Positions 5,787 through 64,000 of a stretch of DNA of 64,000 bases are shown here, in pieces. Source of the stretch: Octopus vulgaris (taxonomy: Eukaryota); contig OX597816.1 in the NCBI GenBank assembly GCA_951406725.2, positions 55,490,001 through 55,554,000 of the forward strand, in the 5' to 3' direction. The notes under the pieces are model-generated. The model was not told the origin of the DNA, made no database searches, and saw nothing but the letters and a program-made list of their open reading frames with translations. The first letter of the stretch is position 1. Each line of letters opens with the position of its first letter. Made by a program: the position numbers and the translations under genes.

Positions 5787-6095
5787 GGTGGCGAGATTTT
5801 CGGATCGTTAGCACGATGGGCAAAGTGCTTGACGGCATCTCATCCGTCCTTACGTTTGTGAGTTCAAATTATGCCAAGGTCGACTTTGCCTATCATCGTT
5901 TCGAGGTCGACGAATAGTGGATCGCAATGTGGCAAGCTTGTAGAATCGCTGGAACGCCGGACGAAATTCTTAGCAGCATTTCGTCTGTCTTCACATTCTG
6001 ATTTCAAATTCCACCGGGTTCAAGCTTTTGGGGGGTCGATAAAATAAGCACCTCCTCTCGAAATTGTTGACCTTGTGCCAAAATTTGAAACCAAT
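5787..6095 (+). mobile_element. Two tandem degenerate SINE family S2 copies
   Basis: Similar to 10466-10699 (GAGTTCAAATT...GGTCGACTTTGCC). Confidence 0.65.
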
Positions 6096-7376: not shown

Positions 7377-7440
<64 letters not shown>

Positions 7441-7847
7441 GTTGTATACTGTCAACTCAACGTGACAGTCCCGTAAGGGAATTGCACCACCACCATTCAG
7501 CCCTAGGAAACATCGACGTTTTCTGTCGGCTTTGACACATTTTCTGTGTTCTTATATTTGCAAAGGGGGGGCAATCACCCCCGCCAGCTGGGACTAGCAC
7601 CTGAAGACATATGTTTCTGAGTGTATTGCTCGTCATCACTCCAGGGTGCAAGTCTCGCTCGCTGGGATCTTTATTAAAGGCACAATTGCCTGAATGAACA
7701 GGGGGCATAACAATACAAAACAAGACATGGGGTACATATAACAAAAATACAGAAAAAATGATATGAAATGAAATATTAACAATGAATTAAATGAAATGGC
7801 TTACGAGCCCCCCAAAGCTCGCAGTTTCATTTACAATTACAGTTATT

Positions 7848-9110
7848 CTATCTGGGGTGTTCGTCACTAATATAAACGAGTAATTCATCCTGCTCTATAA
7901 CGCCGGGTAAACTGTCATATCGAACGTAGTGCGCAATGCACACAGCTGTATTTGAAAACAAATTTATTAATTTATTTACCGTCTCTTTTTCCACTATTAC
8001 AGCCTTTATTTGGTTATCGTATATCCTCGGTTTCAATTTCACTCTCGTTAGATATTTTATTATCGCTAATTTTTTCTCAATTTTTTATCTTTTCGGTACA
8101 ACTCTAAGATTTCTTCCTTTGGGTCTTCCTCATTCCTTCCATGTTTTCAGACATTCCTCCACTTTTCTGATCCATTTTTCCGTTTCCTCCCACGTTCGAC
8201 CTTCACTCACTTCAGTTGTTTTATTTTTCCATTCGTGTGTTCGATCTTCTGTCTCGACGGCAGACTTTTTTGTTTGTTTTTTCTTTTTTTGGTCTTTGGG
8301 TGGTTATTTCACCCCTGTTCGCTTTCTATCCTCTTTTTATTCTATTCTCTCCTTTTCTTTCTCCTTCTCTAGCTCGTCGCCACTTTCCATATTATCTGTT
8401 GTCATGATCTCTTCTCCCGCTAGTAGTTCTACATTCTCTCTTTCTAACTCCCCATGTCAAAGCTTTTATTCCTTCCTCCAGGGTTATCGTATTCTCTTGT
8501 TTTTTTGAGGACACACATCCTTCATGTGCCCTCTGCTCTTACATTTATAACATACTGGAGGTCTCTCATCCACCACGATTCTCAGTCGTGTCTCTACGGG
8601 GAACACCAACTCCTAGGAGATGTTGTACAAATCTGGCATGGTTATGTGGATTAAGGCTTCCACCGCATAACCCCACCAGTTTATTTCATTCGACCTTTCC
8701 ACCTTGAATATATCCACGTCCTCCTTGCAGTTGTAAATTATTGCAGCTACTATACTTTCGGTATCAAGTCCCGATGGAATTTTGCTTATCCGCACCCTCG
8801 CCGCACTTCTACCGCAATAAGTAGGAAGTAATACCCATTTATCTGATCTCAACGCTGTCGTTGCATTCCTTTTTTGCTTCATCTTCATTTTCGAAGCGAA
8901 CTTCTACTGTTGCGCATTGTCTACCTCTATTGTAGATGGTAGTTCTTCCTTTTATTCCTTGTAAACATTTTTCAATCTCTTCTACTTCTGCCACTTTTAT
9001 TCTTTTTGAGACCACACTCCATGTTCAGTATGTTATCGTTTTTCTCTTTGCTTTTTTAACTTCTGGTGTTGTAATCCTCAGACAGTCTCCTTCCTTTTTG
9101 AAGCTGCCAT
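7848..9110 (-). pseudogene. Decayed ORF1/gag-like protein with CCHC zinc knuckle
   Basis: Reading through the stop at 8613 gives ...RVRISKIPSGLD...*ELVFPVETRLRIVVDERPPVCYKCKSRGHMKDVCPQK (CX2CX4HX4C), followed by a K/E-rich region. Candidate ATG at 9110; stops and frameshifts present. Confidence 0.7.
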
Positions 9111-9528
9111 AGTATTTCCTCGGGTTTTCCTTCTCAATAATTTCTTCTTTTAACTGTAATGCGTCAGCAGACAGGCTTTTGCCTGCTGCTTTCGCATAAG
9201 TCTGGGCTTACATACCCAACAAAGAATTCAACGATTATAACGTTCAACACAAAGCAACAATTTTCAACAACAATAATCAACAAAATTCAACTCACAACTG
9301 CAAATCTGAAAAACCGACACAAACACTTCCGCGTGACGTTATCATCTAGGGTAGGAAGTCTCGCTCGCAATGCCCTGAATGAAGAGGGGACATAACAATA
9401 CAATACATCCTTTCTGTATTTTTGTTATATGTTATATGTACCCCATGTCTTGTATTGTATTGTTATGTCCTCTCTTCATTCAGGCCATTGTGCCTATAAT
9501 AAAGATTTCAGCGAGCGAGACTTGCACA

Positions 9529-9572
9529 CTGGACTGATGACGCGCAATGCACTCAGAAACATATGTCTTCAG
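9529..9572 (+). ncRNA. Putative minimal type-I hammerhead ribozyme
   Basis: Stem I CTGGA/TTCAG, core CTGATGA, weak stem II, GAA, palindromic stem III ACATATGT, GUC site. The mirror copy at 7600-7645(-) has GTGATGA. Confidence 0.6.
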
Positions 9573-9794
9573 GTGCTAGTCCCAGCTGGCGGGTGTGATT
9601 GCCTCCCCTTTGCAAATATAAGGACACAGAAAATGTCTCAAAGCCGACAGGAAACGTCGATGTTTCCTAGGGCTAAATGGCGGTGGTGTAATTCCTTTAT
9701 GGGACTGTCACGTTGAGTTGACAGTATATAACCACTATATCGCTCCACTACCGCTCATGTCTCTCTGAGACATTCAGAAATTCAATGTTTCTAA

Positions 9795-9862
<68 letters not shown>

Positions 9863-10003: not shown

Positions 10004-10465
10004 GGAGAAAGAGATGGAGAGAGAGAGAAAGAGAGATTGACAGATAGATGGAAATAAATATATACAGAAAGAGAAATAGAGAGTGAGAGAGAGAGGGAGA
10101 GATTACATACACACGCACACACACTCATACTTGTATACGGTAGATACACACTAAATTCGCAACCAAGTATCGAAACCTCGTGCTGCATGTTCGATTTCTC
10201 GCTTCCCCCTCGATGGTACCAATCAAATTTGTGCCCACTTCAAGTGAAGCTGCATGTAACTTATCCAATTCCATAGTTACTGAACTAGTTCCACTTCAAC
10301 ACCGATATAAATACAAGGCACCTGTAGAAAAATATTTCTTTTTCTAGTCGACCTTCAGAGAGTAATTTCTTTGCTTCTTATCTTTCCTTGCTGTGACGTC
10401 AGTCAATGAAAAAGGCAACGCATTCCCTCTGCGACGTTCACACAGTTAATTTTTCTCTTTCTTAA

Positions 10466-10699
10466 GGCGGCGAGCTGGCAGAAACGTTAGCACGCCTGGC
10501 GAAGTGCTTAGCGGTATTTCGTCTGCCGTTACGTTCTGAGTTCAAATTCCGCCGAGGTCAACTTTACCTTTCATCCTTTCGGGGTCGAAAAATTAAGTAC
10601 CATTTACGCACTGAGGTCGATATAATCGACTTAATCCGTCTGTCTTTCCTTGTTTGTCCCCTCTGTGTTTAGCCCCTTGTGGGTAGTAAAGAAACAGGA
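10466..10699 (+). mobile_element. SINE family S2, full length
   Basis: GGCGGCGAGCTGGCAGAAACG...GAGTTCAAATTCC...GTAAAGAAA. Copies at 13722-13935, 25526-25700, 26450-26670, 33536-33758(-) and 37507-37739(-). Confidence 0.85.
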
Positions 10700-16179: not shown

Positions 16180-16440
16180 ATTGCCATTGAAATATGGCTA
16201 GCCACTAAGGGTGGATGCTACTGTAGCTTGTAGCCGCAGGAGGCCACCGCCTCCAGCTGGCTATAGACACAGATAGGGCACAGAAAGTGTGTCTATAGCC
16301 AGCTGGAGGTGGTGGCCTCCTGGGGCTACAAACTACAGTAGCATCCACCCTTAGGGGTTAGCCATATTTCAATGGCAAATATACGTCACGATGTGTTGTA
16401 GCTAGTGTTTATAACTCGGTCCGAGATTTATTATTGCTTA
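16180..16440. mobile_element. GC-rich fold-back (~92-bp arms) with one-sided tail between (TA)n runs
   Basis: TTGCCATTGAAATATGGCTA...TATAGACACA / TGTGTCTATA...TAGCCATATTTCAATGGCAA. Confidence 0.8.
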
Positions 16441-16453
16441 TATATATATATAT

Positions 16454-16650
16454 ATTTATTTCATAGAAGGAGCTTCTACAGGACTAGAACTGTTTCATTC
16501 AAATGAAATCATCAGGAAGCTTCCTGATGATTTCATTTGAATGAAACAGTTCTAGTCCTTTGGAAGCTCTTTCTATAAAATAAATTAATTTACTCTGCTA
16601 TCTATTGAGTACCTTAATTACTGTGGTTAACCCCGACTCAACCCGGGATC
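16454..16650. mobile_element. Fold-back element family H3: spacerless palindrome (centre AAGCTT 16517-16522) plus tail
   Basis: Arms 16454-16519 and 16520-16585, tail to 16650, (TA)n on both sides. Confidence 0.8.
16471..16522 (-). ncRNA. Putative type-I hammerhead ribozyme
   Basis: AGCTTC-CTGATGA-T-TTC(ATTT)GAA-T-GAA-ACAG(TTCTAGTC)CTGT-A-GAAGCT: 6-bp stem I, canonical core, 4-bp stem III, GUA site. Confidence 0.7.
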
Positions 16651-61955: not shown

Positions 61956-64000
61956 ATAGACATGACGAAGAGCGAGATGCGATTGCAATAAATATGTTAT
62001 TGGCTGTACGATATTTCGACAGCAAACCTGTCTTTCTCTCGTTCAAAATAAAGAGTGATAAAAATTCAGAATTATAGAAATTCAAATCTAAAGTATGGAC
62101 GAGAGCAAACATCCTCCGCACTTTGATGGAATGACATCGCCAGTCTTTAAATCCCAATAACATAACTGGCGAAAAGAAAATACAGAAAAAAGAGGAAAAA
62201 AAAGCGGAAAGAAAAAAGGAAAGGAAAAATGAGAATATTTAATCAAACAGTTTCATGTAAATGTGATGTAATTATGTCCTTTTATTCTTTGCACCTGGGC
62301 GTGATGTTAATAATCCGCAAATATATTTCTCCTCGTGCATTTTGAGTATTGAAATTATAGCAGATTCAGAATATATTTTAATAATATGCACGTTCAAATT
62401 TTTTAATCAAAATTGCAAATGTTTGTCAAGTTATGTCGGACTTCTGTCATATGTCTACACATTAAATCTTTTGTTTAATTGCTCTGTTGTACAACCAACA
62501 TAAATCAAGTAATGTGTCATACATTTTGCCGCGAACAACAAATGGGAATCTCTACAAGTCCCACCGTCTGTGGAAATCATGACGTTTCCTTTATGATTTG
62601 TTGATAGAATTCATTTGTCTCGTGTTGTTGCACAGTGAACAGGGCTTACCTCTTTTGCGGCTGCTTTCCAAGCGCACAGATATTCCAATGTTAGTTTTCT
62701 TGGAGTCAGAAATAGAGGTCAATAGTTGTCATATTTTTATTCCGTCTAAAGGCTACGATAGACAGCTGACGAAATATCTGTTTGAAACGAGGCTGTTTCC
62801 GCAAAACGCTGGTAACTTTCATGCAGATCCTTTGAAATGCCAGCGAAATTTCTGTCACATATTCTATAGTGTTCGCTAAAATTATGCGCGAAGGTTTGAC
62901 TTACTTTGGTAGTCTTAGTTATGTAATTTGCTATTTCTTCTAATCGTGATTCACTGTAACTGCGTTTGGTGTACAAAAGCATTTGCATGTTTCCAGTAAT
63001 CCCCTATGTCAGTACAAATCCGCTTTATCTTAAAAAATTAGGATTTCGGATATGACCAAATTATATGATGTGGATGATCGGAGCGGCTGTGGATGTAAAT
63101 GTGGGATAACATGGGCTTGTAATATAGCTCTGTCACAATTCTGTCTCAAGAAAACTTAACTTTTGTGTCCAAAACTTCAACGCTAATTTTTGTAAAACTA
63201 AACGTAAATTTTATGTTGGACACAAATCCATAGTTTTTAGCATAATGGTCGCAGAAATTCAAGAAGTCAATTAAGCTATTCTATGATCCTTTCAAGACAA
63301 AAATGACATCATCAGTGAACCGTAACCAGAGTATAGATTTATGATCATGTAGGAATTTGAATGTTGTCAGTAACTATGTCTCGAATTTCGTCATGTAGAC
63401 ACTAGCGAAATTAACTGCCATGGTGATACATTTTTGTCCAAACTTCATTGTGTTACTTTGTAACACAAAACTCAATTACCTACAGAGAAAATTCGATGGA
63501 ATACTTTTGTTTGACCGTTTCTTGAAGGTATTCTTGTATGTTTCTACCCCTTCGTCGTGGTCAATATTAGGATATAAGAAACATCCATGGTTACCAAAAA
63601 GCAATTTTCGACATGGTTTTGGTGCTTAAAAAAGTTGATGATTTTATACTAAAAATCAAAAGTAACCCGAATATAGGAACTTGATCTTTTTTTGCGACAG
63701 GGAGTACAAAGCCATACAGCTATTCCGAAACCTTGGCTGTTCAAAATTTATATCCGCTTCAAATTGGACGCATTGGAGGAAATCTTTCGAAACTTTTGTG
63801 TATTTTAGGGAGATCATAAAATACAGGTGTTTTTCTTTCTTACCGTAAAATCCTGCATTCGGCTTTATTAATGAAATTGTTTACTTCCATTTCCAAAATT
63901 ATTTTGTCGAGTTCCTCTCTGTAAAGGAGTTTCGGATTGACAGGATATTCTTCATATGAATTTTTGTCACTTAAAACTTCTTCACTTTTGTCCATAATTA
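61956..64000 (-). mobile_element. Degenerate Penelope-like element (RT + GIY-YIG + 3' pLTR remnant), runs off the window
   Basis: LPKIHKSFERFPPMRPI, TMAVNFASVYMTKFE, WLRFTDDV, TELYYKP..HIYIHSRSDHP, AAKC..LIYVGCTTEQLNKRF. GACAG(GTTTG)CTGTC-GAAA at ~62003-62045. Confidence 0.8.

Follow-up and report, generated by a model that had tools for sequence, protein, structure and literature searches.

Several described systems resemble parts of the element analysed here. Non-autonomous LINE derivatives that retain only ORF1 are known as HAL1 (half-L1) and as Dictyostelium TRE5-A.2 (PMC5753468), and the inner unit reported below is of the same kind. TRE5-A.2 is mobilised in trans, and TRE5-A chooses its targets by position, its ORF1 protein binding TFIIIB in vitro (PMC3159450). 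Tx1L in Tx1D, Tx1-Mar in Mariner-N4 and Keno in U2 are LINEs with APE and RT that, like the LINE considered here, use a single site in a repeat or snRNA gene, produce target duplications and stack in tandem (PMC4494074). The outer unit has its counterparts in the non-LTR retrozymes and the pseudo-LTRs (pLTRs) of PLEs (Penelope-like elements), these being type I hammerhead repeats of ~350 bp in partial tandems (PMC7229834; bioRxiv 10.64898/2026.07.22.740005); PLE pseudo-LTRs also share the inverted 5' copy, the one-ended tail and the (TA)n targets (PMC8557442). A recent repeat paper on O. vulgaris names L1-Tx1 and Penelope families, and the words 'hammerhead' and 'snRNA' are absent from its main text (PMC13282606).

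The window is a stretch of 64,000 nucleotides of Octopus vulgaris DNA (contig OX597816.1). We conclude with high confidence that the element in it consists of two nested parasites, a LINE inside a Penelope-type hammerhead retrozyme (Table 1). The window copy itself is dead. A first-pass annotation, made from the letters alone, had described inverted repeats of ~320 bp at its ends, and these were recovered as 7433-7743 against 9430-9740 (311 nt, 93% complementary) and by blastn as 7434-7755 against 9411-9739 (91%). The sequence taken for one single ~320-bp repeat is there, but it is a composite of 88 nt of LINE 3' UTR and ~235 nt of retrozyme. Similarly, the partial direct copy noticed just inside the right repeat is present (9337-9368 and 9368-9407), but its identity had to be revised, as it consists of a target duplication and a scrap of the 3' UTR of a second LINE. 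A tail at one end only, as in the right arm, is a PLE trait (PMC8557442).

Table 1. Features of the nested element, in positions of the window.
Feature	Position	Strand	Basis
(TA)n flanking the left arm's 3' end (Penelope-type target)	7385..7433	.	sequence; solo retrozymes end likewise
Retrozyme/pLTR arm, family A, from predicted +1 (7668) to inner 3' end	7434..7668	-	91.5% to solo copy; empty site in 18 solo copies
Minimal type I hammerhead on the ORF strand, likely inactive through C3G in its core; GUC site follows 7606	7601..7644	-	sequence, covariation, PMC11167929
ORF1-only L1/Tx1-group LINE (half-Tx1): 5' UTR, ORF1, 3' UTR; 5' boundary approximate	7669..9348	-	
AATAAAG terminating the half-LINE 3' UTR	7675-7669	-	
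Decayed ORF1, ~455 codons	7848..9213	-	intact relative P0001
Diverged copy of the retrozyme's first ~20 nt, the target-site duplication on the LINE 5' side	9349..9367	-	
3' UTR scrap of a second, upstream half-LINE; contains the head-to-head junction	9368..9410	-	
Inverted arm, LINE 3' UTR portion (AATAAA 9498-9503)	9411..9504	+	
Inverted arm, retrozyme portion, with ~57-nt extra tail (9740-9797) at this end only	9505..9797	+	
Minimal type I hammerhead with an intact core and a mismatch in stem II; GUC site follows 9567	9529..9572	+	sequence, covariation
(TA)n flanking the right arm's 3' end	9798..9842	.	sequence

When the 2.8-Gb genome was searched with the repeat, 2242 candidates were obtained. 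The interior was absent from 18 of the 28 other top repeat loci, and an empty insertion site was visible in 18 solo copies. The repeat splits at position 88: its first 88 nt, which end in AATAAAG, go with the interior, and the remainder occurs alone. The solo retrozyme has a period of 354 bp (L052) and is a short non-coding monomer found in partial tandems, with an inverted 5' copy and a one-ended tail. The outer unit is a type I hammerhead retrozyme of ~350 bp that resembles a Penelope pLTR and is common on its own; the retrozymes that host the LINE span several families, some of which cannot be aligned to family A of the window. Both arms also contain a 59-codon open frame (7457-7636, minus strand; 9537-9716, plus strand) that starts at the ATG of the hammerhead core. 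Its start inside the core resembles that of an Anolis PLE ORF, and the frame is broken early in family B copies. Elsewhere in the window we noted a head-to-head fragment of retrozyme family C (16181-16454) and a weak minus-strand match to the PLE RT/thumb region (63011-63328).

The CTGATGA core that had been assigned to both repeats is found in the right arm (9534-9540), but the left arm reads GTGATGA (C3G), a substitution by which a PLE hammerhead loses its cleavage (PMC11167929). Rfam called no hammerhead (0/30 matches at E ≤ 1), and the two window motifs folded on their own were no better than shuffles (z -0.64 and -0.02). In an alignment of 10 chosen sequences from several retrozyme families to a hand-set structure, 92.5% of the cells were paired and two-sided changes occurred in 10 of the 12 pairs. 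We base the identification of the hammerhead on this covariation across retrozyme families. Of the earlier interpretation, which was partly supported as a whole, the Penelope-type layout was upheld: the arms, the tail and the (TA)n fit it, and the junctions point to mobilisation in trans. Neither of the two PLE families examined (10 and 6 loci) contained a pLTR matching these retrozymes. These two families (L190-L199 and L236-L241) are young and high-copy, with long open frames and many head-to-head copies, and a regex search of the stretches fetched revealed no hammerhead in them.

The minus-strand reading frame between the arms is decayed, as had been stated, but it is longer than the ~420 codons first given: the relic extends from 9213 to 7848 (~455 codons) and contains three frameshifts and about seven in-frame stops. 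The zinc knuckle that had been recognised in it was confirmed as CCHC CYKCKSRGHMKDVC at 8552-8511 on the minus strand, and Pfam zf-CCHC was detected in 35 of 39 relatives. In agreement with the first reading, the unit is without RT, and no recombinase or transposase was seen. For the intact relative P0001 (460 aa), the prediction is of two RRM-like domains and a CCHC knuckle, with a C-terminal half that is charged. The structure model of its core (pLDDT 87.7) resembles tandem RRMs (IMP3 RRM12, E 1.7e-5), with a best Z of 8.5 over 78 residues, a middling score.

Two genome searches revealed how widespread the inner unit is. The interior gave 258 candidates in the 2.8-Gb genome, of which 40 were scored, near-full copies being 76-89% identical, and P0001 gave 13,756 candidates with many open frames and ~1.8-kb head-to-tail arrays. 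An interior that is unique or runs into an ORF2, which would have spoken against the first-pass annotation, was not borne out by these 258 candidates or by 82 distinct units with 50% identity or more to the P0001 core, in which the tail came first in 68, ORF2 came first in 0, and 14 gave no call either way. A word-based protein search with P0001 1-245 gave no match. A profile search yielded 1306 matches at E ≤ 0.001, with named members from Octopus and Argonauta. P0001 matched the ORF1 of a complete LINE (32% over 237 aa, E 1e-42; L113), a second match being 31% over 143 aa, and in L113 the ORF1 homologue is followed by APE, RT and zf-RVT (Pfam). When ORF2 of the L125 element was compared with solved structures, human L1 ORF2p came out closest (E 2e-48, versus E 2e-22 for R2). 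The label 'Tx1-like' is our assumption from ORF1 architecture and behaviour; the preference for multicopy repeats or small RNA genes, a Tx1-clade trait, is found in this LINE group. An APE ORF in L103 and RT ORFs in L107, L110, L117 and L123 were considered as LINE parts and rejected as unrelated neighbours. The one in L107 is Gypsy-type by Pfam, and those in L110, L117, L123 and L103 are presumably RTE-like and PLE.

In a quick tree, the tail and hammerhead labels of which are regex-based and noisy, the ORF1-only units form one long branch (44 rows, support 99); the protein alignment comprised 39 of 40 rows, L004 being left out. The median dN/dS of ORF1 was 0.23 for 21 pairs from the subfamily and 0.12 for 98 pairs of distant members, both below 1, in line with the first-pass expectation. 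Judged by these codon comparisons, ORF1 is under purifying selection (dN/dS ~0.1-0.25). By its ORF and relatives, the inner unit is a ~1.7-kb ORF1-only LINE of the L1/Tx1 group, similar to HAL1 and TRE5-A.2.

In the window family the 3' end was in view at 34 of 39 loci and, as scored by eye, continued into a hammerhead retrozyme in 28, upholding the linkage of repeat and ORF suggested earlier, into a duplication and another unit in 1, and elsewhere in 5. The 5' ends, also scored by eye, were preceded by a second copy of the retrozyme's first 11-25 nt in 26 cases out of 29. For the complete LINEs, 3' flanks were read in 39 of 40 scored relatives: 30 were retrozyme, 3 duplication and another unit (one uncertain), 4 U2 +1 and 2 other, the share of copies found in retrozymes being inflated by hitchhiking. 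Half and complete LINEs occupy one position, 25-35 nt upstream of the hammerhead core, with 11-25-bp duplications, in several retrozyme families, and the LINE has inserted with its own target duplications in at least six retrozyme families, in U1/U2 genes and in itself. At L125/L131 one retrozyme holds both kinds, first a complete LINE (ORF1, APE, RT) and then a half-LINE; three copies of a 15-bp duplication stand before, between and after them, with retrozyme sequence ahead of the stack and the hammerhead behind it.

Other settings were also observed. At L091/L092/L112, L098/L115, L099/L116 and L100/L113 there are arrays in which ORF1-only units, diverged and often intact, number up to ~8; three of these arrays end in a complete LINE. 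The enclosing repeat has what we take to be Helitron-like ends, and the recurrence of near-identical array units on many contigs is a second case of hitchhiking. One half-LINE (L074/L148; G000:C4:98702000-98709500) lies with a ~15-bp duplication in non-retrozyme sequence that has no Rfam match and may be an unannotated small RNA gene. Members of a branch with GGGT tails (L093, L107, L110, L230; L092, L097, L098, L128; L108), together with the off-target copy L029, often lie ~28-30 nt downstream of a TATA-like box in other repeats; targeting of TATA starts by this branch is only a lead, because most cases trace to two host repeats and represent few independent events, and because the nick at L223/L224 is near -33. 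In the window, an abundant SINE-like repeat (10464-10695, with similar copies at 5787-6023) has a 3' tail in common with the GGGT-tail LINEs, which suggests that these LINEs may mobilise it.

In exact pattern searches for insertions into snRNA genes, six LINE tails abutted U2 +1 and one abutted U1 +1; reversed controls gave 0. L220 and L221 follow different U2 promoters and have the same 14-bp duplication. A 5'-truncated complete-type LINE between the U1 promoter and +1 (L242) and a half-LINE between the U2 promoter and +1 (L243) each have a short deletion, not a clean duplication, at the 5' junction. The half-LINE L002 carries the first ~22 nt of U1. In the LINE copies in U2, the 5' head matches retrozyme G from its ATC onward, as expected if the LINE RNA began there. 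The motif ATCA(G/T)(T/C) was present at -56 to -61 in 20/20 U1/U2 genes examined, and the upstream region of the retrozyme carries the candidate promoter motif ATCAGTGA. In six of seven retrozyme subfamilies the top score of a matrix derived from U1/U2 lay at -54 to -60 relative to the insertion site, and in the seventh the score at -53 was second-best; these are not seven independent cases, because subfamilies A, B, D and E are related. As the retrozymes carry an snRNA-type upstream motif at the same distance (-53 to -60), the insertion site is probably the transcription start of the retrozyme. An snRNA-type promoter also drives newt satellite 2 (PMC2220036). The location of the LINE family at the first base of U1 and U2 genes implies that it likely homes on that promoter type; that promoter position is what selects its sites is a proposition to which we give an even chance.

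Evidence on the further history of the chimera came from its ends. The window arms terminate at two end positions of solo retrozymes, next to (TA)n and with a tail on one side only. Arm ends, (TA)n and a one-sided tail of this kind are the PLE signature (PMC8557442, PMC11167929), and L196, a PLE of this genome, has the same overlapping arms. In the window and at L135, L136 and L141, the inverted arm includes LINE sequence and the head-to-head arms overlap. In the truncated-copy test of Kojima (PMC4494074), five 5'-truncated units with a 3' retrozyme (L028, L138, L140, L144, L145) were without an upstream duplication or retrozyme, and one (L143) had the upstream duplication; four of the five truncated loci came from, or were also in, the repeat search and were thus selected for a 3' retrozyme. 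Distances of the LINE and the adjacent retrozyme were correlated, if imperfectly, over 23 loci (rho 0.52, 1/5000 permutations), and the two trees disagree at some loci (L020, L142). At many loci (L017, L024, L103, L131) the inverted arm is an empty retrozyme, in keeping with simple insertion of the LINE into an old copy. Given the TSD-bounded insertions outside retrozymes (L007, L029), both routes appear to operate. Re-copying of the chimera as a unit, Penelope-style, is likely for the window and 8 other loci, as judged from these junctions.

Two other explanations concern single steps of this history. The LINE could have a sequence specificity of the Tx1 type, its endonuclease, aided by pairing of read-through RNA with the nicked target, reading a loose motif such as ATC-n3-A-n-C-Y-R-G, with promoters irrelevant. 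Nearly all duplications start with ATC, the off-target flank L184 fits the loose motif, the LINE sublineages track target groups, and Tx1L, Keno and Tx1-Mar are sequence-directed (PMC4494074). Moreover, the first 12 nt of retrozyme G match U1 and U2 at 9/12 positions each, so that sequence preference or RNA-DNA pairing could explain the sites. However, upstream of the nick the sequence lacks conservation and AT(C/A) alone is invariant, the upstream motif lies at a fixed distance, and one LINE family with 85-96% identity uses five different +1 sequences; we regard promoter-independent reading of a motif as rather unlikely, though a serious competitor. Absence of any re-mobilisation, with independent LINE insertions into resident retrozymes and the window element derived from an old inverted retrozyme that took an insertion in each arm and later lost part of its sequence, would agree with the many loci with empty inverted arms, with the independent TSD-bounded insertions L007, L029 and L143, and with the crocodilian SINEU-3, for which the same test favoured independent insertion (PMC4494074). 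It is nevertheless improbable, since between the arms of the window, L136 and L141 there is no upstream part of a retrozyme or duplication, the upstream target is missing in five of six truncated copies, the closest relative of the right arm among 29 arms is the left arm, and odd junctions are common to different chromosomes (L008/L010).

The nature of the element itself has also been read in other ways. The first-pass annotation envisaged a retrozyme-like class with its own RNA-chaperone gene aiding the PLE RT, and the long ORF1-only lineage, found mostly in retrozymes and with dN/dS<1, would suit such a class. The native gene, however, had to be given up: the ORF with its UTRs is a separate ORF1-only LINE of the L1/Tx1 group that has its own tail and duplications, complete relatives with APE and RT lie at the same site, the unit also occurs outside retrozymes (U2, SINE, self-arrays, Helitron-like repeats), and most retrozymes are without it. 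We consider this model very improbable; in a weaker form of it, the composite RNA may now benefit from the captured ORF1. The inverted terminal arms in the window, together with a knuckle and an internal partial repeat, could likewise point to a DIRS-like element (ITR, internal complementary repeat, gag knuckle) or a derivative of a DNA transposon. Yet arm length and orientation differ between copies, many of which have direct repeats only, and the predicted fold RRM-RRM-CCHC of the ORF matches LINE ORF1. A recombinase or transposase, which in longer copies would have spoken against the first-pass annotation, was not seen, nor was an LTR-type RT attached, and the long relatives carry APE and RT, leaving this origin extremely improbable.

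We thus return to the nested LINE. On balance, the likely overall explanation is that it resides at the predicted start of the retrozyme, where the ORF2 of complete relatives inserted it, and that the chimera was re-copied by a Penelope-like RT. This ORF2, from LINEs with the same site and a similar tail, would have acted in trans. The upstream motif would be a working PSE and the insertion site +1; the LINE would choose the promoter complex or the open start site and so borrow the host promoter, and its ORF1 may have been retained for an action in cis on the RNA that encodes it. In the second phase, the PLE RT would have primed two cDNAs on both strands of the (TA)n site from read-through RNA, and these would have been joined head-to-head inside the LINE 3' UTR. 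More tentatively, and at somewhat less than even odds, the LINE lineage with its long-lived ORF1-only branch may home via the transcription machinery to +1 of snRNA-type (PSE), perhaps TATA, promoters, pirating those of U1, U2 and retrozymes and then riding a second RT, so that one RNA would have two replication routes.

If the site follows the promoter, this would be a natural LINE whose insertions fall precisely on a Pol II start site and restore the 5' end of the host gene downstream; it would provide a Pol II counterpart to TRE5/TFIIIB tethering and a reason for ORF1-only LINEs to keep the ORF. For invertebrate retrozymes, the analysis locates a candidate promoter together with a candidate start site and shows that they carry kilobases of coding cargo. 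In annotation, composites of this kind will be wrongly called PLE, DIRS or host CCHC genes. In the open literature that we searched, there was no description of insertion at snRNA +1 or into retrozymes and no paper on retrozymes and Tx1 together.

Each ingredient has precedent, in HAL1/TRE5-A.2, in Tx1 elements in repeats and U2, in retrozymes and in SINEU heads. Drosophila HeT-A is a Gag/ORF1-only element that forms head-to-tail arrays and has autonomous partners, and the arrays here are alike; HeT-A, however, is telomeric and Jockey-like, whereas the element here is not telomeric and is Tx1-like. Compared with HAL1 and TRE5-A.2, the element here has a Tx1-like parent in a cephalopod and lies at +1 of Pol II snRNA-type units instead of ~50 bp upstream of tRNA genes. 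Described retrozymes are without an ORF, whereas in those found here a LINE of 1.7-7 kb is nested as cargo. For Keno and Utopia the insertion site is U2 nt 38/39 (PMC4640811), in contrast to +1 for the LINE here, and unlike the target-specific members of the Tx1 clade, one family here uses U1, U2 and several retrozymes. The crocodilian SINEU elements likewise have U1/U2-derived 5' heads, depend on Tx1 and are probably transcribed from flanking promoters (PMC4494074), but the heads here are short duplications from +1 insertion and the element is protein-coding. Finally, hitchhiking, which was rejected for SINEU-3 (PMC4494074), is supported for the LINE described here.
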